From: a virus
Taxonomy: Duplodnaviria; Caudoviricetes
Virus record (IMG/VR): IMGVR_UViG_3300036820_000642
Span: 1-56,119 of that record
Strand: one strand, 5' to 3'
DNA length: 56,119 bases
Both the position numbers and the translations under genes were made by a program. Position 1 is the stretch's first letter, and the number at the start of each line of letters is the position of its first letter. Below the pieces are notes generated by a model. That model searched no databases. It saw only the letters and a program-made list of their open reading frames with translations, and had not been told where the DNA came from. Shown piece after piece: positions 3,026-56,119 of the stretch.

Positions 3026-3111
3026 TTGATTCACAATTAACTATTGTCTGCGGCTTCGCCGCGAATGTCCCCCTTCACCTTCTTTGCCGATGGCTAAACC
3101 CTTAGACAACA

Positions 3112-3420
3112 GTGTTCGCTCAACGCGAACTAACTTGTTTTGCTGTCGATGATCATCACACGTTACCGTTGTTAAGTATGGGGATCGGTAACACGAGAGA
3201 TGGCATCATTCTCTCAACTCGGACAATCACTGTCGCGCTCGCAGACGACGGCGCCACATTGCTGATGTTCGCGCAGACGAATCCCCGCGAACAGGACTGG
3301 CGCAAGGCTATGCGCCTCCTGGAAAAACACCATGTGTCCGATATCGGGGAACCGTCATGGTTCGCCGATATTGACCTGTGGGAAATTCCCCTACCGTGTC
3401 GCGACACGCCCACGGATTGA
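3112..3420 (+). CDS. Hypothetical protein
   Basis: ORF upstream of the nuclease module; start uncertain. Confidence 0.45.
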   Translation: MFAQRELTCFAVDDHHTLPLLSMGIGNTRDGIILSTRTITVALADDGATLLMFAQTNPREQDWRKAMRLLEKHHVSDIGEPSWFADIDLWEIPLPCRDTPTD

Positions 3421-3436: not shown

Positions 3437-3646
3437 ATGCAGGATACTCTTACAAATATGGAAGAGAGCACGGAGGCGAGGTCGCACAGCCAGCTTCACA
3501 GCTGGCTGCAATGCGGCAAAGCCTACGAACTGGAACGCATCAGACGCGTTCCCCGCAAACCCGGCTTGTGGCTCCCGGCCGGTACCGCCTGCCATCTGTC
3601 AATTGAGTGGTGGCTTCGTCAGCGTCTCGCGAAAGGACTCCGGTAA
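3437..3646 (+). CDS. Cas4/RecB-like PD-(D/E)XK exonuclease, N-terminal piece
   Basis: RSHSQLHSWLQCGKAYEL...AGTACH matches the S-x-S...C...GT-x-x-H N-terminus of phage Cas4-like nucleases; ends in TAA. Confidence 0.8.
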   Translation: MQDTLTNMEESTEARSHSQLHSWLQCGKAYELERIRRVPRKPGLWLPAGTACHLSIEWWLRQRLAKGLR

Positions 3647-4045
3647 ATGACCGAATTTGTGGAGAACACCACAAGGCGTGTGCCGAACAAGGAACACCTG
3701 ATCCTGTGGTATCAGGCGCTGATGTCCGGCGACTATGTGCAGGGCGACGGCCGGCTCTGCGCGGTCGGGCACGACGGTGAGCCTGACAAATGGTGCTGCC
3801 TTGGCGTTGCTTGCGATGTCGCCGTCAAGAACGGCGTTGAAATGCTCCTCGATGCCGATGGGATACGCAAGTATTTCGACGGGATGATTGCCTATCTCCC
3901 CAAGAAGGTAGAGGAATGGCTCGGGGTTCCCGATCATGACCCTGATCTTGCCGGGGAACGCGCATCCAATTGGAACGACAGCTCTCGCCTGTCGTTCCCG
4001 GAGATCGCCGAACTGATCAAGAACGAATACGAGCTGGCCGTCTGA
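3647..4045 (+). CDS. Conserved phage protein, 'ALRSG...CCLGV...WND' family, copy 1
   Basis: WYQALMSGDYVQG...WCCLGVAC...LP...W...WND...F.EIA. Confidence 0.85.
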   Translation: MTEFVENTTRRVPNKEHLILWYQALMSGDYVQGDGRLCAVGHDGEPDKWCCLGVACDVAVKNGVEMLLDADGIRKYFDGMIAYLPKKVEEWLGVPDHDPDLAGERASNWNDSSRLSFPEIAELIKNEYELAV

Positions 4046-24584: not shown

Positions 24585-25150
24585 GGGGCCTTGCAGCTAT
24601 TGCCCTTTACCTGTCTCCACTATGCCTGACCAGCGCAAACGTAATCGTTATAAAATAGTTATCAGATTGTGTGTCCCGCTGAGGCGGTCCCGAGAGGGTG
24701 TTAATAGTAGAGGGAGAAAACGGGCCTCCCCCTCCCCTCACACTCCCCTCCCTCTCCTCCCTCTCCTACTGGCCCGCTGTAGCGGGCCATTGCAGTAACA
24801 GTAGTAGTAACTGTTCGTAAGAACAGCTCCGCTGTTCTTACTCACGCAGTACAGGGTTTCTTGAACCCCACTCTTTCGCCGCTGGCTAGAGACATCAAAG
24901 ATGTCCGGTTATTTCACGACAGCGCTGACGGCCTAAAGGCCGAGGTGCAGTTCATCGGAGCCGGACTCCATCGCGTACCGCGTGTGATTGATAATCATCG
25001 CTCTCGCGGCGCCCTCGGGCACAGGCTTGCCGGCCTGACGGTAATAGGAATCGATCCATTCCAGGTAGGCCCCCTCATCCTCTAGGGCGTACCTTGCCGC
25101 GTTCACCAATGAGGCAAGCAACTCCGGGTTTCTGCACATGCAGTAATCAT

Positions 25151-25223
25151 AGCGGGGTGTTAGCAGTGGTAGCTTGCCGGACTCATAATCCGGAGGTCGC
25201 GGGTTCGATCCCCGCCCCCGCCA
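25151..25223 (+). tRNA. tRNA-CAT, initiator (fMet)-like
   Basis: Cloverleaf: AGCGGGG/CCCCGCC (1:72 mismatch), CCGGA-CTCATAA-TCCGG, GCGGG-TTCGATC-CCCGC; no encoded CCA. Confidence 0.85.
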
Positions 25224-25235
25224 CTTGTCAATGTG

Positions 25236-25327
25236 GCCGCCTGGTCGATCCCAGGCGGCAAGATCCAAGCTGCTGTGATCCCTGCCAATGGCAATGGATC
25301 ACAACCAGTCACACCGCAAGGTGTGAC
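25236..25327 (+). ncRNA. Unknown structured RNA (three hairpins, one with GCAA tetraloop)
   Basis: gccgcctgg/ccaggcggc; tgtgatcc/ggatcaca; gtcacacc-GCAA-ggtgtgac. Confidence 0.5.
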
Positions 25328-25329
25328 AA

Positions 25330-25413
25330 GGGCGTGCCAGGCATCGTGGCACGGGCAGACCCTCAAAATCTGCACCGACCTAGACACGGGTTCAACTCCC
25401 GTCACGTCCACCA
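25330..25413 (+). ncRNA. Mini-tmRNA: tRNA-like domain only (no pseudoknots or tag ORF)
   Basis: Acceptor GGGCGTG/CACGTCC with G3-U70, A73, encoded CCA; stemless D-loop CCAGGCATCG; 3-nt GAC linker; T-arm ACGGG-TTCAACT-CCCGT. Confidence 0.75.
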
Positions 25414-25528
25414 AAGGGTATGCGGAAATTGGCGGCTGGCCTCGGCTGGCGTGGGTTTCGGCACCCTCCATACCCTTCTAAGTTCGGCTCCGGGCTGGGA
25501 AACCATCCGCGCAAGTACCCCCGGAGCC
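25414..25528 (+). ncRNA. Unknown structured RNA(s): two branched stem domains
   Basis: aagggtatg/cataccctt closing stem; ggctccggg/cccggagcc enclosing GAAA and GCAA tetraloop hairpins. Confidence 0.5.
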
Positions 25529-25537
25529 ACACCCCAT

Positions 25538-25611
25538 GGGGGCCGTAGCTCAGCAAATAGAGCGCACGGCAAAGGCCGTGAGATCACAGGTGTAAATCCT
25601 GTCGGCCCCCA
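25538..25611 (+). ncRNA. tRNA-like RNA lacking a functional anticodon loop
   Basis: GGGGGCCG/CGGCCCCC, GCTC/GAGC D-stem, CACGGC-AAAG-GCCGTG, ACAGG-TGTAAAT-CCTGT. Confidence 0.75.
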
Positions 25612-25634
25612 CAATAATCACCACTAGGGATCAA

Positions 25635-26264
25635 TTGCCAGAAGTAGACCTAGACCCCGATCTAGTCATGCCTAAAAGGCAGTGCCGCTCCAAATCGCGG
25701 CAGACAGGCAAGCAGTGCAAACGGTATTGCTCTACCGGCCATATTGTCTGCTGGTGGCATGGGGCCGGCACACCGAATGTGCAGCGTGCCGCGGTGCGCC
25801 GGGCTAACAACTGGTACGCGAAGAAAATGGCGCTCAGGATGCTCGAAACAGCCGGTTACGAACGAATAGACGATCCGGTTGAGGCGCTAGCCCACCTGGC
25901 TGGCGAAGTCTGGGCAGCCAAAGAGTTTTTCCGCTCCAAAATCGATGAACTGCGGTACCAGTCCGCGACTGGTGAACAGCTCCGCTCCGAGGTCGCGCTC
26001 TATGAGCGGGCCTTGGATCGCTGCATGAAAGTCCTCGACGTGATGGCCCGCCTCAACATCAGCGACCGCCGCACGGAGATCGCCGAACAGCAGGCCGTCA
26101 TGATCGCCTCCGCTGTACAGCGCATGTTTGACCGCCTCGGCCTGACCTACCGGCAACAGCAGCTCGCCATGACGATCGTCCCCGAAGAACTGCGCGCCAT
26201 CACTGCCGCTCCGGCTCACGAGCCGTGGCAAGACCACAATGTTGGCCTCGATCCCGAGGACTGA
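25635..26264 (+). CDS. Putative terminase small subunit (N-terminal CCCH Zn motif)
   Basis: C...RQTGKQCKR...VCWWHGAGTP; directly upstream of TerL. Confidence 0.6.
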   Translation: MPEVDLDPDLVMPKRQCRSKSRQTGKQCKRYCSTGHIVCWWHGAGTPNVQRAAVRRANNWYAKKMALRMLETAGYERIDDPVEALAHLAGEVWAAKEFFRSKIDELRYQSATGEQLRSEVALYERALDRCMKVLDVMARLNISDRRTEIAEQQAVMIASAVQRMFDRLGLTYRQQQLAMTIVPEELRAITAAPAHEPWQDHNVGLDPED

Positions 26265-27711
26265 CCCCTCCCCGTGGGATGCCGCCGCCGCGATCTTCGA
26301 GCGGCGGTCCATGGAGAACGACCCGGTGAAATGGGCCAAGGACAGGGCCAAAGTTCACCTCTGGTCGTTGCAGCAGAAGATAGCGCGTTCTGTCGCCGTC
26401 AATAAGCGTACTGCTGTCCAGTCCTCCCACGGTGTCGGCAAGAGTTTCCTAGCCGCCACCCTGGCGGCCTGGTGGGTAGACACCCACCCCCCGGATCAGA
26501 CCATGGTCGTCACCACAGCGCCGAGCCTTGACCAGGTGCACGCGATTCTGTGGGAAGAGATCCGCGGTCTCCACGACAGAGCCCACCTGCCTGGCGTTGT
26601 CCAGCGCACCGACCGTTGGCTAGTCGGTGACCGCCTTGTAGGAATGGGGCGTAAACCCCCGGACTATTCAGAGTCAGCGTTCCAGGGAATTCACAGGAAA
26701 TATGTCTTGGTCATTCTCGATGAGGCATGCGGGATCGATCAATGGTTGTGGACTGCGGTCGAAACAATCACGACCGCAGACACATGCCGGATTCTGGCAA
26801 TCGGTAACCCCGACGATCCCAACTCGCATTTCAGGGATCTGTGTTCCGGTGTTCCTGGCTGGAAATCCTTCAAGATCAGCGCGTTCGACTCACCGAACTT
26901 CACAGGCGAACGTATCCCCCAGGAGCTACAGCAGCTTCTTACGTCTAAACAGTGGGTTGCCGACCGCGAAGCGGAATGGGGTATCGACAATCCCCTGTAC
27001 GTGGCCAAGGTGCTCGGGGAATTCCCGACAGACCATCCTTGGTCCGTCATCAGGATGACAGACATTTACGCGTGCAGCATCCCAGGCACGCCAAGGTCAA
27101 AGAAAGAGCTGCTACCCGTGCAGCTCGGGGTGGATGTCGGCGGCGGCGGTGACGAGACAGTCATTCGTGAGCGCCGCGGCCTGGTCGCAGGCCGCGAATG
27201 GCGGGAACGTTCTGACAAGCCGGAGAACATCGCACGGCTGGTAGTCCATGCGATAAAGGCCACCGGTGCCGATTCGGTAAAGGTGGACAGCATCGGCATA
27301 GGTCACGGCCTGGTCGGAGAGCTGCGGAACCTACGGGAACTGGGCGCGCATAGCGCGCATGTCCATGGAGTGAATGTCAGTGAGCGAGCCAGAGACCCCG
27401 AGAAGTACTACAACCTCCGCAGCCAATTGTGGTGGGAATGCGGGCGGATCGCCGCCGAGCAACGGTTGTTCGACTTGTCCGGTATGGAAAATGCTGACCG
27501 GACTGTTGCGCAGATGCTGGAGCCGCATTACACGTTTGACCTCAAAGGCAGAATCAAGATAGAGGCGAAGGACGAAATTATCAAGCGGATGGGGCGAAGC
27601 CCCGACAACGCTGACGCTCTCTTGCTCGCTTTCTATGAGCCGGAACGGCGTAACGGCTCTGAATGGTTCGATGCGATTCTAAGCGGTCAATGGGTCGGCC
27701 AAGACTTCTAG
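26239..27711 (+). CDS. terL: Terminase large subunit
   Basis: SHGVGKS Walker A, ILDEA Walker B, IGNP, GVDVG, SPDNADA. Confidence 0.93.
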   Translation: MLASIPRTDPSPWDAAAAIFERRSMENDPVKWAKDRAKVHLWSLQQKIARSVAVNKRTAVQSSHGVGKSFLAATLAAWWVDTHPPDQTMVVTTAPSLDQVHAILWEEIRGLHDRAHLPGVVQRTDRWLVGDRLVGMGRKPPDYSESAFQGIHRKYVLVILDEACGIDQWLWTAVETITTADTCRILAIGNPDDPNSHFRDLCSGVPGWKSFKISAFDSPNFTGERIPQELQQLLTSKQWVADREAEWGIDNPLYVAKVLGEFPTDHPWSVIRMTDIYACSIPGTPRSKKELLPVQLGVDVGGGGDETVIRERRGLVAGREWRERSDKPENIARLVVHAIKATGADSVKVDSIGIGHGLVGELRNLRELGAHSAHVHGVNVSERARDPEKYYNLRSQLWWECGRIAAEQRLFDLSGMENADRTVAQMLEPHYTFDLKGRIKIEAKDEIIKRMGRSPDNADALLLAFYEPERRNGSEWFDAILSGQWVGQDF

Positions 27712-28352: not shown

Positions 28353-30351
28353 CCGCGCCGAGAAAGCCAGCGGCAGCACTGCGCTAGCCACTCGTTCCGG
28401 CCCCCAGCAGTTCCCGCCTGGCGCGAAGACAAGCGACGTTTCAGACCTCGCAAGAGCTCTCACGCAGTACATGGGCCATTACGATATGGATGGCCAGGGC
28501 AAGATTCTCCCTCGCCCGGACGAGTGGCTTTCCGCGCAGTTCGGCCCGCAATGGCCGCTGCCGATCGAACCGCTTGATGCGCCTCGCCCCGACACGGGGA
28601 TGCCGGAGCCACGGCAATGGCAATACCCGTTCAGTTGGAACCTCCAGCTATTCGACCAGAAATCTGTTAGCTGGGACACGCTCAAAGAGGCGTCGGAGAC
28701 ACCACTATTCCGGGCTTGCATTGAAGTCAGGAAAACTGAGCTGGCGTCCCTTGACTGGGGTATCCGTGTCTCATCGCGGGCAGCGGAAGCGATTGCCCGC
28801 AAATCCCGGCGCAGCAAAGAAGATGTTCAGAACGAGCTACGCCAGAAGTATGAGAAGCAGATCGAGAAGGCTTCTGACTTCTGGGAAGTCCCGGATCGGA
28901 AAAACGGTCTCGAATTCAGCGACTGGATTAGCGCCGCTCTTGAGGAACAGCTCACCTGGGATGCGATCGCCGTCTATCCTCGCCGCACCTACGGCGGGGA
29001 TCTGCACGACCTGATGATTGTGGACGCCTCCACGATTAAACCGCTGCTGGACGAGCAGGGCGGCAGGCCGCTGCCGCCATACCCTGCTTTCCAGCAGATT
29101 CTCTACGGGTTTCCCCGCGGGGAATTCGTCGCTGACACCGTGGATATTGACGGTGAAACAGTCGTCCCCGGCGGCATGTCCGCCAGCCAGTTGATTTACA
29201 AACGCCGTGTCGTCCGCACACGGACCCCCTACGGGTTCTCCGCGACAGAACAAGCATTGCTCGACGGCCTTTTGTACAATCAGCGTTTCGGGTGGATGCT
29301 CGCCGAATACACCGAAGGCACGCAGCCCGCCCAGTTTTTCCGTAACACCGGCGATGTCGATTGGTCTGCCAGGCAACTACTGCAATATGAGAAGGCTTTT
29401 AATGATCGTTACGCTGGCCGCACTGCTGAACGTTACCGTTTTCCTATTCTCCCACCTGGCATTGAGCCTGTAACACCCCAGCAAATCCAGGAGCGATACA
29501 AGGCAGATTATGATCTGCATCTTATCGCCAGAGTCGGGATGCATTACGGGGTAATGCTCCCCGAGCTTGGTTTCACTGAGCGCGGCGGACTCGGCTCTGC
29601 TGGGTATCACGAAGGTCAGGAAGCAGTCGGCTACCGGCGTTTCCGGCTCCCGGACATCCGTTGGTTCGCCCGTTTCCTGACCGCAATCAGCCGCGCACAA
29701 CTCGACTTTCCCCCCGAGCTGGAATTCGCGTTCCTCGGGCTCGAAGAGGAAGACGAGGCCGCAGTTGACGAAGTTGTGCAGAACAAAACGCAGTCCGCGC
29801 GGATGACGTTGAATGAGGCACGTGCGCGCGATGGCCTGCCGCCTTTTGACTTTCCAGAGGCGGATATGCCGATGGTGCAGACAGCCCGCGGTGTCGTGTT
29901 CATTCAGGGTGCATCTGAGAGTGCGCCACCAGGCGTGCTGATTGAACCAGTGTCGGAGAACCCGACGATTCCGGCTGGTCCTGGCGCGTCGGGTGCTCCC
30001 GGCCAGTCGGCACAGCCGCAGCAGGGGCAAGCGCAGTCCCCGACGCAGCGCCGGCCGATCGGTCCGGCCGGTAGAGGCAAGACCGCCGCCGCTGCGGCGA
30101 AAGAGCTGGACACCTTCAAGGCATGGGTGCTGAAGCACCCAGACCCATCAAGGCCTTTCGAGTTCGAGTCAGCCGCCGAAGAGCTGTTTGAGCTGGATAC
30201 GAACCTACTCGGGGAGCACTGGGGCAAGTACGTGTTCAAGGCGGGTGGTGCTGCCCCAAAAGCCAGCAGCCACCCCCACAGCAGTGGCCAGCCTGGGAAC
30301 AAGACCTCGCCCTGGTCGCCGTATACGCCGGAGCACTGGCTAGCGCCCTAA
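28333..30351 (+). CDS. Portal protein
   Basis: Position after TerL; DASTIKPL, YGFS, TLNEARARDGLPP. Confidence 0.88.
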   Translation: MAFWQRNRAEKASGSTALATRSGPQQFPPGAKTSDVSDLARALTQYMGHYDMDGQGKILPRPDEWLSAQFGPQWPLPIEPLDAPRPDTGMPEPRQWQYPFSWNLQLFDQKSVSWDTLKEASETPLFRACIEVRKTELASLDWGIRVSSRAAEAIARKSRRSKEDVQNELRQKYEKQIEKASDFWEVPDRKNGLEFSDWISAALEEQLTWDAIAVYPRRTYGGDLHDLMIVDASTIKPLLDEQGGRPLPPYPAFQQILYGFPRGEFVADTVDIDGETVVPGGMSASQLIYKRRVVRTRTPYGFSATEQALLDGLLYNQRFGWMLAEYTEGTQPAQFFRNTGDVDWSARQLLQYEKAFNDRYAGRTAERYRFPILPPGIEPVTPQQIQERYKADYDLHLIARVGMHYGVMLPELGFTERGGLGSAGYHEGQEAVGYRRFRLPDIRWFARFLTAISRAQLDFPPELEFAFLGLEEEDEAAVDEVVQNKTQSARMTLNEARARDGLPPFDFPEADMPMVQTARGVVFIQGASESAPPGVLIEPVSENPTIPAGPGASGAPGQSAQPQQGQAQSPTQRRPIGPAGRGKTAAAAAKELDTFKAWVLKHPDPSRPFEFESAAEELFELDTNLLGEHWGKYVFKAGGAAPKASSHPHSSGQPGNKTSPWSPYTPEHWLAP

Positions 30352-49225: not shown

Positions 49226-49444
49226 GGGCTCATCCGGGCCGCCCTCTTCGAGCATGCGTTCCACCTCATCCATAGTTTTCCTGATCTGCGGGAACAGGCT
49301 GTGATCGAGACGGATCTCCCACGCACGACTGTCATCGTGCACTTTTACGTTGCTGGCATTGATCGAAACAGAAAAATCTTCAGCGGGAGTGATCAGGGGA
49401 TTGTCTTGCGTATCGATCCAAATCGTTGTCTTCACCGTAGCCAC
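49193..49444 (-). CDS. Small protein, paralog of 2557-2748, inserted antisense in the late region
   Basis: GAGAGGAG SD, GTG start; KTTIWIDTQDNP. Confidence 0.7.
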   Translation of the reverse strand: MATVKTTIWIDTQDNPLITPAEDFSVSINASNVKVHDDSRAWEIRLDHSLFPQIRKTMDEVERMLEEGGPDEPSVSSLHVVED

Positions 49445-49495
49445 TAGTTTTCTCCTCTCGCAGAGACAAATCAGCATACCATTGGGAACCCCTTA

Positions 49496-50701
49496 TTGAC
49501 TCTTAACACCGTAACCCTCACATGGGACATCACCGACCTCGGGCAAGACACCCTCGCAGGCCGAATCAGCCTGACACCCACAGCCGTCCTGACAGACCCG
49601 ACAGACAAAATCGTTGTTCCGTCTGTCATTCCTAAGAGTCAGGCATTCGTGTCCGGAACCGGCAGCATGCCGGGCATCATCGCCACCGACAATGAACAGG
49701 TCACCCCCTCGGGGTGGGCCTACGTCATACAGATCGTCTCCCAGTCCGGACAGACGATCGTCGGGCCATTCACCGCGTTCATCCCGTACAGCAACGGGGC
49801 GACACAGGATCTCTCCCAGCTCGTACCCGTCCAGACCGCGGCCACCTACCAGGCGTACCTGCCGGTACCGACCGGTACCCCGGCAGAGGGTGATGTGCCG
49901 GTCGCGACCGGCACAGGCAACGCAACTGAATGGGGGACAGCCGGAGGCGGCGGCGGTATAAGCCCGCCTGCGGGTGACCTCGGCGGCACGGCCCTCGCGC
50001 CCACCGTTGTATCCACGCACCTCTCAGAACCGCTCCCAGTCGCGCAGGGAGGCACTGGCAGCAGCACGCAGGTATGGGATAACGAGGGTGCCGCCACTGC
50101 GGCGCAGACAGCCGCGGAATCGTTCGCTACCGCGGCCGTAGCCACTGAGACCAGCCGCGCAGAAACGGCTGAAACGCTCGCGGCGCTGAAGGCGAACAAC
50201 CTGTCAGACCTCGCCTCGGTGAGCCAGGCCAGGACCAACCTGGGGCTCGGTTCGGCCGCCACGATGGCCGCGTCCGCGTTCGACGCGGCCGGAGCGGCCT
50301 CCACGGCACAAGCCAACGCGGAAGCGTACGCGCTGCCACACGCAGGCGGCGACATGACAGGGTGGCTCGCGCCATCCGTCATACCCCTATCCCAGTCAGC
50401 CGGGACTGTGGCGGTTAATGCCGCACTCGGGAATGTCTACACGCTCACGCTGACCGCTAGCGGCTGGGCAATCGCGAACCCCACCAGCCCGACAGACGGG
50501 CAGGTCATCCGGTTCCGCCTCACCCAGGATTCCACGGGTGGCCGCACAGTCACCTGGGGGACGGCCTACGACTGGGGATCAGGGAACAGCGCCCCCGCCC
50601 TTTCCACCACTGCAAACAAAACGGATGTGCTCGGATTCGAGTACAACGCCGGCACATCCATGTGGATGTACCTTGCTGCCCCGTTCCCGCAAGGCTTCTA
50701 A
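49496..50701 (+). CDS. Tail fibre / virion accessory protein
   Basis: GDLGGT, LPVAQGGTG, KANNLSDL...ARTNLGLG, TQDSTGGRTVTW fibre motifs. Confidence 0.75.
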   Translation: MTLNTVTLTWDITDLGQDTLAGRISLTPTAVLTDPTDKIVVPSVIPKSQAFVSGTGSMPGIIATDNEQVTPSGWAYVIQIVSQSGQTIVGPFTAFIPYSNGATQDLSQLVPVQTAATYQAYLPVPTGTPAEGDVPVATGTGNATEWGTAGGGGGISPPAGDLGGTALAPTVVSTHLSEPLPVAQGGTGSSTQVWDNEGAATAAQTAAESFATAAVATETSRAETAETLAALKANNLSDLASVSQARTNLGLGSAATMAASAFDAAGAASTAQANAEAYALPHAGGDMTGWLAPSVIPLSQSAGTVAVNAALGNVYTLTLTASGWAIANPTSPTDGQVIRFRLTQDSTGGRTVTWGTAYDWGSGNSAPALSTTANKTDVLGFEYNAGTSMWMYLAAPFPQGF

Positions 50702-54985: not shown

Positions 54986-56119
54986 TCAGCCTACCGCAGA
55001 CAAGACATGCTTGCCATTCGACCGTGATCCGAATGGCAGCACTTGCGCGCCGGAAGGCGGCGCAGCATCCGGCACCGCGAAACCATACATGGTTTCCTCC
55101 ACCAGATACTCATTCAGGAAGTCCCGTTCCTCATCCACCCCGATATACGTGAGTGTCTGCCGGATATCCTTGTGGTTCAGTTTCGCCTTCACCATCATCA
55201 GGGCCTGGTCGTTGCCCTTGGTCCCGGCGAGGTGCTTGAGCATCGCCCTCGCCCCGGAACGGCGCAGCATATGCATGCCCTCACGCATGTGCGTGACACT
55301 GTCCCCGTTGCCGCCAGGGGTTTCTATGCCCATCTCGTCAAGGACGTACTTAACCACATACTCCATGCGCTTATACGGCATGTCGGGGTGGATTTTCTTG
55401 TATGCGTTAGGGCTGGTACCGCCGTGGGCGGTAAGCCGCGGAATGAGGTACCACTCCGGGTGAGCTTTGATCATTTCTTCCGGTGTCGCGAAACCCTGAT
55501 CAGTCGCATACCAGGACAGCCAGTCCATCAATTCCGTGAACCAGTACGGATCGAAACGGTCTAGTGTCCACCGCCGCGTTTTCACCCGGTACAGGAGTAC
55601 CGTGCGCGCCTCAAGGTCCAGTTTCTCTAGCCGGATGAACGAGACCTCGGATTCACGGGCCAGCGTTGATAGCGTCATGGCGACGACTGCGCGGCGCTGC
55701 TGATGACTCTTCCCCGCGACCTCAAGCGCCTCCGGAATGCGATCCTCGGGCATCCGGTACCTGGGGGCGGGCTCGTATTTGACGCGCTTACGGCCGGCTA
55801 GGGCATCGTCTGCGTCGTCGCGGTCAACGAAGCGGCGGCGCACACACCATTTCAACCAGGCCCGGACGGCGACAAGGAGCTGATTGCGGGATGCGTGCTG
55901 ATCAGTGCCGTACGAGTTGAACACGTCGGCTATGTGCCCGGTGTGGATGTCGCACACCATCAGGCCCTTACGGGAGACGCTGCACACCCTGTCCAGGCGG
56001 CGGATGTACCCGATGTAGGCACGGACTGTGCTCGCGGACCCTAGCTCCGATTCGAGCTGGGCTTCCCACTCGGGGATGCTGTCAGCTACGCTGATTTTCG
56101 TTATTGTTCGGGAGGACAT
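54986..56119 (-). CDS. int: Tyrosine recombinase / integrase
   Basis: Catalytic R (LARESE), K (RVKT), H-x-x-R (HMLRR), H (LNH), Y (TLTYI). Confidence 0.88.
   Translation of the reverse strand: MSSRTITKISVADSIPEWEAQLESELGSASTVRAYIGYIRRLDRVCSVSRKGLMVCDIHTGHIADVFNSYGTDQHASRNQLLVAVRAWLKWCVRRRFVDRDDADDALAGRKRVKYEPAPRYRMPEDRIPEALEVAGKSHQQRRAVVAMTLSTLARESEVSFIRLEKLDLEARTVLLYRVKTRRWTLDRFDPYWFTELMDWLSWYATDQGFATPEEMIKAHPEWYLIPRLTAHGGTSPNAYKKIHPDMPYKRMEYVVKYVLDEMGIETPGGNGDSVTHMREGMHMLRRSGARAMLKHLAGTKGNDQALMMVKAKLNHKDIRQTLTYIGVDEERDFLNEYLVEETMYGFAVPDAAPPSGAQVLPFGSRSNGKHVLSAVG
56088..56119. repeat. Terminal direct repeat / circular assembly overlap (copy 2)
   Basis: Identical to 1-32. Confidence 0.95.

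Follow-up and report, generated by a model that had tools for sequence, protein, structure and literature searches.

The window analyzed here spans the 56,119 bases of a complete IMG/VR virus record (IMGVR_UViG_3300036820_000642), which is classed as a provirus, is estimated to be 100% complete, and has a GC content of ~59%. A non-coding stretch of ~550 nt (25086-25634), located ~0.8 kb upstream of the gene for the large terminase subunit, carries an array of structured RNAs on one strand in the order tRNA(CAU), three hairpins, an 84-nt RNA, a branched structured segment, and a second tRNA-shaped RNA. The 84-nt RNA is the subject of this report; an earlier note, made from the sequence alone, had described it as the complete tRNA-like domain (TLD) of a transfer-messenger RNA (tmRNA) from which the mRNA-like domain is missing. 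The feature is confirmed to be real, non-random, non-coding, and not a normal tRNA, and its interpretation as a tag-less RNA acting on SmpB and trans-translation is partly supported.

Structure and model scores of the 84-nt RNA

The acceptor stem, A73, the encoded CCA, the GAC linker, the T-arm, and the top of the hairpin, all named in the earlier note, were each found in place when the sequence was read again (Table 1). The 84-nt RNA shows the acceptor and T-arm features of a tmRNA, namely a 7-bp acceptor stem with G3-U70, a discriminator A, CCA, a 5-bp T-stem, and a 7-nt T-loop, and all 12 pairs of the acceptor and T-stem are intact. Both halves of the TLD lie in the standard order within ~100 nt; a closed helix connects them, and there is no tag frame. 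The mRNA-like domain of the Rfam tmRNA model RF00023 is absent: there are 37 nt where the model has 326 positions, with no resume codon, tag frame, or pseudoknots. The anatomical reading of a tmRNA TLD in the standard order, without a tag open reading frame (ORF) or pseudoknots, therefore stands on the sequence, the RF00023 alignment, and the output of ARAGORN.

Table 1. Parts of the 84-nt RNA, other units of the RNA array, and two phage genes in the window
Feature	Position	Strand	Evidence
Candidate tag-less, TLD-only tmRNA-like RNA gene, 84 nt	25330..25413	+	RF00023 end-to-end 40.6 bits; RF00005 19.8 bits; descriptor 1 site vs 0/300 shuffles
Acceptor stem 5' strand GGGCGUG (DNA GGGCGTG); G3 of G3-U70 at 25332	25330..25336	+	Sequence; pairs 7/7 with 25403-25409
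D-loop-like segment CCAGGCAUCG (DNA CCAGGCATCG), with GG and UCG	25337..25346	+	Aligned to tmRNA consensus AucuGGaUUCG
Irregular hairpin in place of helix P2; ~10 pairs, bulged A at 25374	25347..25382	+	Folds; stands for 326 RF00023 model positions
Hairpin top GCAGA-CCCTCAAAA-TCTGC	25355..25373	+	Sequence
9-nt hairpin loop CCCUCAAAA; no Ala anticodon; no tag ORF in hairpin	25360..25368	+	Sequence
GAC linker 5' of T-arm	25383..25385	+	Sequence; aligned to GGAC / GAC of tmRNA and R1 models
T-arm ACGGG-UUCAACU-CCCGU (DNA ACGGG-TTCAACT-CCCGT)	25386..25402	+	Sequence; Rfam alignment
Acceptor 3' strand CACGUCC (DNA CACGTCC) 25403-25409, U70 at 25407; A73 at 25410; encoded CCA 25411-25413	25403..25413	+	Sequence; Rfam alignment
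tRNA, CAU anticodon, first unit of array	25151..25224	+	ARAGORN; RF00005 42.1 bits
Three strong hairpins (25236-25259, 25274-25303, 25308-25327); last stops 2 nt before G1	25236..25327	+	Fold of 25225-25329 (105 nt), -51.5 kcal/mol
Second anticodon-less tRNA-shaped RNA	25538..25612	+	ARAGORN 'tRNA-???'; RF00005 48.3 bits, 5-nt insert for 7-nt loop; fold
Terminase large subunit gene	26239..27711	+	phrog_2, E = 4e-36
Tyrosine integrase, right end of record, 30 kb from RNA	54986..56119	-	PF00589, 27.8 bits

Positions 1-374 of RF00023 align to exactly 25330-25413. The earlier note had expected a TLD-only match in a search with Rfam models, and the end-to-end alignment is of that form; its score, however, lies below the gathering score of 47 bits. 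The Rfam tRNA model RF00005 gives a score under its cut-off of 29 bits, so that the tmRNA model exceeds the tRNA model by ~21 bits (40.6 vs. 19.8). The mt-tmRNA model RF02544, which had been named for the same check, has no match in the window at E ≤ 10, and at 25330-25413 ARAGORN called neither a tRNA, nor a tmRNA of either form, nor a tag peptide. By its architecture, and by being closer to the tmRNA than to the tRNA model, the 84-nt RNA is a TLD-only form.

A descriptor that combines a 5-bp T-stem and the T-loop GTTCRANYC with an acceptor of 7/7 pairs, including G3-U70, within 15-79 nt matches the window at a single site; after dinucleotide-preserving shuffling, 300 sequences gave no match. 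The minimum free energy of the 84-nt RNA is -31.4 kcal/mol (z = -2.33), and three of 200 shuffles fold equally well. In the ORFs that overlap the RNA site, GC content is flat across the codon positions (0.57-0.64), as compared with 0.62/0.45/0.70 in the terminase gene, and none of the five has a PHROG match at E ≤ 0.1; because these ORFs show neither codon-position periodicity nor a PHROG match, we call the RNA non-coding.

Comparison with tmRNAs, tRNA-Ala, and published tag-less forms

The acceptor stem GGGCGUG/CACGUCC is identical to that of many environmental tRNA-Ala genes, and this is the likeness between the 84-nt RNA and the tRNA-Ala and alanine minihelix substrates of alanyl-tRNA synthetase (AlaRS). 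A pattern in which the acceptor 3' strand of the window was fixed matched 76 viral loci. In 57 of them the 5' strand lies 300-439 nt upstream, and we therefore take these loci to be full-length tmRNA genes; in 10 others it lies within 57-80 nt, and in the remaining nine none was present in the available sequence. A gapped acceptor pattern applied to metagenomes gave at least 120 matches; among the matches listed, 104 are 76 nt long and tRNA-Ala-like, and the list comprises 55 unique 75-77-nt tRNA-Ala-like sequences as well as five further short non-tRNA sequences.

The T-loop was compared among RNAs that share this acceptor 3' strand: of 40 unique full-length tmRNAs, 16 have exactly UUCAACU and 28 the broader type UUCRACU, whereas neither is present in any of the 55 unique tRNA-Ala sequences among the matches listed. 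The 40 tmRNAs are, however, related to one another, and their counts are not independent. Unlike tRNA-Ala, the 84-nt RNA has no D-stem and no 7-nt anticodon loop, it has a tmRNA-type T-loop, and in its 9-nt loop CCCUCAAAA there is no GC and hence no NGC anticodon. The failed tRNA model, the missing NGC anticodon, and the tmRNA-type T-loop set it apart from tRNA-Ala. A tRNA-Ala that had merely lost its D-stem was considered as a candidate and rejected, as the hairpin loop lacks an NGC anticodon.

We also compared the 84-nt RNA with the tmRNAs of five actinomycetes that carry related prophages and that may not include the host of this phage. These five tmRNAs start with GGGGGUGAC(U/C)GG(U/C)UUCGAC or GGGGCUGAUCGGUUUCGAC and end with GGAC, the T-arm GCGGG-UUCGAUU-CCCGC (in one of the five CCGGG...CCCGG), and an acceptor 3' strand CACCUCC or CAGCUCC. 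Relative to the GGGGGUG-type tmRNAs, the 84-nt RNA has one compensated acceptor pair (G4-C69 to C4-G69) and one compensated T-stem pair (G-C to A-U), and two T-loop bases and half of the D-loop also differ. That both of these pair changes are compensated speaks, at the level of sequence, for selection to maintain pairing. The RNA may descend either from a tmRNA or from a tRNA-Ala, as its acceptor sequence exactly matches many environmental tRNA-Ala genes.

A tag-less tmRNA reduced to the TLD has been listed before, as 'Mycobacterium phage DS6A (TLD only)' (Hudson, Lau & Williams, 2014; PMC4131195), with the tmRNA Website identifiers tmID 11587 and Phage__Mycobacterium.9. We located this RNA at positions 28478-28560 of JN698994; it is 83 nt long and scores 43.2 bits with RF00023, which, like the 40.6 bits of the 84-nt RNA, is under the gathering score. 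Both RNAs are encoded by a phage, in the case of DS6A a temperate actinophage, lack a tag frame, and are not located next to an integrase gene. They also share the order of their parts: acceptor 5' strand, D-loop with GG, closed P2 hairpin, short linker ending in AC, T-arm, and acceptor 3' strand with G3-U70 and A73. The DS6A RNA keeps a canonical UCGAC and an apical AAAACCGCACGCGG motif common to many metagenomic TLD-only RNAs, whereas the 84-nt RNA has UCG followed by UG and a plain hairpin with a 9-nt loop; in addition, the DS6A RNA ends in CUA and the 84-nt RNA encodes CCA. DS6A integrates at a tRNA-Lys gene (PMC10865867), so its TLD-only RNA is not an att site either. Thus, the 84-nt RNA is equivalent to the DS6A RNA in architecture, size, and Rfam score. 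The tag-less TLD-only tmRNA is already published as a kind, and we read the present RNA as a divergent new example of it. In a full-text literature search, the only papers found to treat phage TLD-only tmRNAs were PMC4131195 and PMC11915505. As a separate observation, DS6A (49300-50502) encodes the RtcB-like RNA ligase gp76, and the phage of the window has no RtcB.

Other tmRNA forms are less similar. The 2025 tmRNA database counts nine 'Standard, no CDS' and 72 'Permuted, no CDS' sequences, where CDS denotes the tag coding sequence, and these include plastid and mitochondrial tag-less forms (Nawrocki, Petrov & Williams, 2025; PMC11915505). The CDS-less organellar tmRNAs, known from jakobid mitochondria (Jacob et al., 2004, via PMC11915505) and from Mallomonadaceae plastids, where they measure ~65 bp (PMC11915505), resemble the 84-nt RNA in being cut down to the TLD without a tag reading frame; they differ in being organellar, mostly permuted, and accompanied by an imported SmpB, and RF02544 is blank in the window. 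Full-length tmRNAs of mycobacteriophage Bxz1 and its relatives and of Bacillus phage G (PMC4131195) are likewise phage-borne ssrA-type genes with the same TLD, yet they keep the resume codon, tag frame, and pseudoknots whose place is taken by the 37 nt of the 84-nt RNA.

A restrictive pattern, in which the tmRNA consensus was given a short middle, was scanned over viral contigs and identified 65 viral loci (L287-L351) with 48 unique sequences, 41 of which have a perfect 7-bp acceptor with G3-U70. The five canonical TLD-only RNAs tested with RF00023 all score above the gathering score (60.7-76 bits). In an alignment of 36 IMG/VR sequences (A2), a 7-bp P2 that the pattern did not impose changes on both sides in six of its seven pairs. 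Thus, a real family of phage TLD-only RNAs exists. Its members have the same architecture as the 84-nt RNA, measure 75-81 nt through the discriminator base, and keep G3-U70 and the discriminator A. They share UGGUUUCGAC, the covarying 7-bp P2, and an apical AAAGCC..GG motif that is also present in DS6A; the 84-nt RNA falls short of their RF00023 scores and differs by its C4-G69 acceptor pair. A covariance model, R1, was built from 36 canonical phage TLD-only sequences and scored the DS6A RNA at 67.9 bits and the RNAs of loci L101, L239, L164, L235, L132, and L237 at 63.9, 53.3, 40.2, 37.0, 35.9, and 31.0 bits, respectively.

Three of the contigs met in these scans carry further structured RNAs. 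The 46.8-kb viral contig L132 has a type II hammerhead ribozyme at 2399-2463 (RF02276, 50.1 bits), 1.7 kb from its 72-nt TLD-only-like RNA. The viral contig L131, which has the acceptor 3' strand of the window, bears a permuted tmRNA gene at 3626-3936 on the minus strand (RF04321, 74.7 bits). The viral contig L085 encodes a 57-nt G3-U70 minihelix RNA at 2611-2667, together with a very large tRNA array of 34 RF00005 matches (E ≤ 0.01) in 13.7 kb and a bacterial-type RNase P RNA at 1887-2183 (RF00010, 173.9 bits).

Proposed role and competing explanations

We propose, with roughly even confidence, that positions 25330-25413 form a real phage gene for a tag-less, TLD-only tmRNA-like RNA of the DS6A kind, the product of which would compete with the tmRNA of the host. 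The G3-U70 pair is a sufficient identity element for AlaRS, and a minihelix of acceptor and T-stem suffices for alanylation; the 84-nt RNA is probably alanylated and probably interferes with trans-translation. In the proposed sequence of events, the RNA would be co-transcribed with tRNA(CAU) and the other structured RNAs of the array, and RNase P and 3' trimming would release it in the manner of a tRNA, down to the encoded CCA. Host AlaRS would then charge it through G3-U70 and A73, and the RNA would rival host tmRNA as a ligand of SmpB and perhaps also of EF-Tu and stalled ribosomes, with less tagging and trans-translation during infection or lysogeny as the predicted outcome. Having no resume codon, it would block or short-circuit tagging. 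Neither SmpB (PF01668) nor RtcB (PF01139) is encoded in the window record; any SmpB partner would therefore be a host protein.

Titration of trans-translation is a mechanism already in print for RNAs of the DS6A type (PMC4131195, PMC11915505). A similar molecule, whether chargeable or not, strongly inhibits the tmRNA of E. coli, perhaps via titration of SmpB (PMC4131195, citing Mao et al., 2009), and the statement is repeated by Nawrocki, Petrov & Williams (2025; PMC11915505). By such an RNA a phage would interfere with host ribosome rescue and protein tagging using less than 100 bases. Since DS6A already documents the kind, the present example adds little in principle. Its contribution is that divergent TLD-only forms, which sit at the border of the tmRNA TLD and the tRNA-Ala minihelix, escape both ARAGORN and the Rfam gathering threshold. 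In addition, a single pattern yielded 41 unique canonical TLD-only sequences vs. a total of nine 'Standard, no CDS' sequences counted in the 2025 database, the supplementary tables of which may list more (PMC11915505).

A number of observations, collected here and in the next two paragraphs, weigh against the proposed SmpB-directed role. In tmRNA, the GG/UUCGAC D-loop and the GGAC/GAC linker form the SmpB-side surface. The alignment of the TLD shows that the 84-nt RNA retains GG, UCG, and the 3' GAC, beside a predicted competing hairpin of 3-4 bp, and that the conserved 5' UUCGAC is reduced to UCG and then UG. When the fold is left unconstrained, CCA (25337-25339) pairs with TGG (25347-25349) and a small hairpin arises inside the D-loop; the predicted energy is -29.9 kcal/mol with this hairpin vs. 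-27.6 kcal/mol with the D-loop held open, a preference of 2.3 kcal/mol. The segment with GG and UCG that the earlier note had called a stemless D-loop is thus there, but the predicted CCA/UGG hairpin makes 'stemless' an interpretation. With the D-loop held open, 10 pairs are predicted for P2, interrupted by a single bulge and a single internal loop; of the helix of about 11 bp closed by a 9-nt loop in the earlier description, the loop was found as described and the pair count fell to 10. Given the incomplete motif and the model scores listed below, the evidence that the 84-nt RNA would present an SmpB-binding surface is thin. A scan for sigma-70-like promoters gave one match, located inside the tRNA gene, compared with a shuffle mean of 0.7.

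The covariance models leave little room between the 84-nt RNA and tRNA-Ala. On RF00023, 33.8 bits are reached by a phage tRNA-Ala whose acceptor stem is identical to that of the 84-nt RNA; in the five actinomycete genomes, the real tmRNA is followed by six sub-threshold matches of 76-77 nt with 34.4-40.7 bits, of which the top one (40.7 bits), the only one checked, is a genuine tRNA-Ala(CGC). The RF00023 score alone does not separate a TLD-only RNA from tRNA-Ala. On R1, the 84-nt RNA scores 31.7 bits and a tRNA-Ala control 27.5 bits, and in the R1 alignment the former lacks the apical family motif as well as the AC of UUCGAC. These margins over tRNA-Ala controls, of just 0-7 bits with the tmRNA model and 4 bits with the TLD-only model, together with the incomplete SmpB-side motif and an acceptor shared with ordinary tRNA-Ala genes (104 of the 120 matches listed being 76 nt), would fit an anticodon-less tRNA mimic with a role unrelated to SmpB. 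Such a mimic could derive from tRNA-Ala or tmRNA and serve, maybe together with the RNA at 25538-25612, as a decoy or sponge for factors that bind the acceptor or CCA end, or as a punctuation signal for RNase P; the presence in the array of another tRNA-shaped RNA without a decoding loop agrees with this. We regard it as a possible though not a probable explanation. The T-loop UUCAACU is of the tmRNA type and absent from the 55 tRNA-Ala sequences among the matches listed, the D-loop and GAC linker align with the tmRNA model, the DS6A RNA has the same layout, and no result points to a specific toxin or partner.

Homologues in related phages, which the earlier note had suggested as a source of covariation, were not recovered. 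Rfam models run on the nine closest phage relatives (terminase 71-78% identical) gave no homologue in any of them, all five matches being tRNAs. Over 82 terminase-related loci, model R1 found none (best score 19.6 bits) and the descriptor found no tRNA-unlike G3-U70 minihelix, and when the 84 nt were compared by blastn with 69 terminase-related viral loci, no match was better than E = 0.53. With a homologue in none of the 82 related loci, neither covariation nor conservation lends support to the 84-nt RNA. By these searches it is accessory and limited to this phage, a common status among phage tRNA genes. The same results would also fit a phage tRNA-Ala or tmRNA gene in decay, of which the 84-nt RNA would be a remnant now without function: the RNA is unique to this phage, its middle part matches no conserved family motif (hence the low R1 score), and the surrounding array is unconserved, with BLAST matches in relatives confined to tRNA(CAU) in two of the 82 loci. 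Decay, however, would be expected to hit the acceptor and T-stems first, and here none of the 12 pairs is broken; nor has the RNA lost its T-loop, the D-loop GG, A73, or CCA, two of the differences from actinomycete tmRNAs are compensated on both strands, and the hairpin is stable. We therefore consider a remnant unlikely.

Rather doubtful is another alternative, in which the 84-nt RNA, the RNA at 25538-25612, and the hairpin spacers would together form a phage 'tRNA-mimic array' that does not titrate SmpB and instead supplies CCA-ended decoys for host acceptor-end factors, e.g., CCA-modifying defence toxins. If true, tmRNA-like RNAs would have a role in counter-defence that has not been described for them.

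It is very unlikely that the site is an attP-type copy of the 3' end of the host ssrA gene, as the earlier note had allowed, or a piece of a permuted, two-piece tmRNA with its 5' half downstream. Over the 3'-terminal 31 nt, identity to enterobacterial ssrA 3' ends and to attP sites of cultured phages is 87-90%, and blastn of the 84 nt against cultured phages returned only matches of 20-37 nt to enterobacterial ssrA ends, attP sites, and tRNA T-arms; the exact 31-nt 3' end has no match in viral contigs. Yet both halves of the TLD are present in the standard order, 30 kb separate the site from the sole integrase gene, which lies at the record's end, and the tmRNAs of the five actinomycetes, which may not include that of the host, differ in acceptor, T-stem, T-loop, and D-loop. 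The attP copy was rejected on these grounds and finds no support. For the permuted form there is a weak RF04321 match at 25383-25461 on the plus strand (21.8 bits, E = 0.024 in a 701-nt search), in which a downstream UGGCGUG..GGUUUCGG is combined with the T-arm and acceptor 3' end of the actual RNA. Its score is far below the gathering score of 47, ARAGORN called no tmRNA of either form, and the downstream segment lies inside a separate branched structure with no P2, pseudoknot, or credible tag frame after it. A permuted tmRNA using the downstream frame GCA CCC UCC AUA CCC UUC UAA was accordingly rejected, and the match was judged to be due to chance.

A decoding tRNA of odd shape, lacking a D-stem and having a 9-nt anticodon loop on a long anticodon stem, is hardly credible: although the hairpin is about as long as a stacked D-stem and anticodon stem, its loop contains CUCAAAA in the Y-U-NNN-R form of an anticodon loop, and a relative has a tRNA with an 8-nt anticodon loop, the loop here is 9 rather than 7 nt with two extra bases unable to pair, no NGC anticodon matches the alanine identity of the acceptor, RF00005 gives only 19.8 bits, and ARAGORN makes no call.

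Genomic surroundings of the RNA array

The closest prophage terminase relatives in named genomes are 39-44% identical to that of the window. Since 12 of these 13 relatives are from actinomycetes (Actinomadura, Nonomuraea, Streptosporangium, Micromonospora, Actinoplanes, Paractinoplanes, and Nocardioides) and the other one is from a Gemmatimonadaceae metagenome-assembled genome, the host of this soil phage is probably an actinomycete. Of the sequencing runs listed for the window, none is an RNA run, and the only one that contains it in full is a DNA run from a soil metagenome, which may be its source. A phrog_3678 gene, the large terminase gene, and the portal gene follow directly downstream of the array, and PHROGs and Pfam give nothing for the ORFs just upstream. 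At the right end of the record, a gene for an HTH_31/DUF5753 regulator adjoins the integrase gene. Megablast of the 12 kb around the RNA gave no match in cultured phages.

The structured spacers at 25225-25329 and 25414-25537 have no match in the 82 related loci. The second of them (124 nt, plus strand) is a two-domain structured segment closed by AAGGGUAUG/CAUACCCUU, with a predicted energy of -51.3 kcal/mol. In the RNA at 25538-25612, the acceptor, D-, 'anticodon', and T-stems are perfect, the loop in the anticodon position has 4-6 nt, and the T-loop is UGUAAAU.

A tRNA(CAU) upstream of the terminase genes recurs in the relatives L003 (3012-3086), L005, L011 (1081-1155), and L025, and in several of them its first acceptor pair is mismatched. 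In L003, the terminase of which is 76% identical to that of the window, the tRNA with the 8-nt anticodon loop lies at 3090-3166 between tRNA-Met and tRNA-Asn; ARAGORN assigns it the anticodon 'tttg', and it scores 38.9 bits with RF00005.

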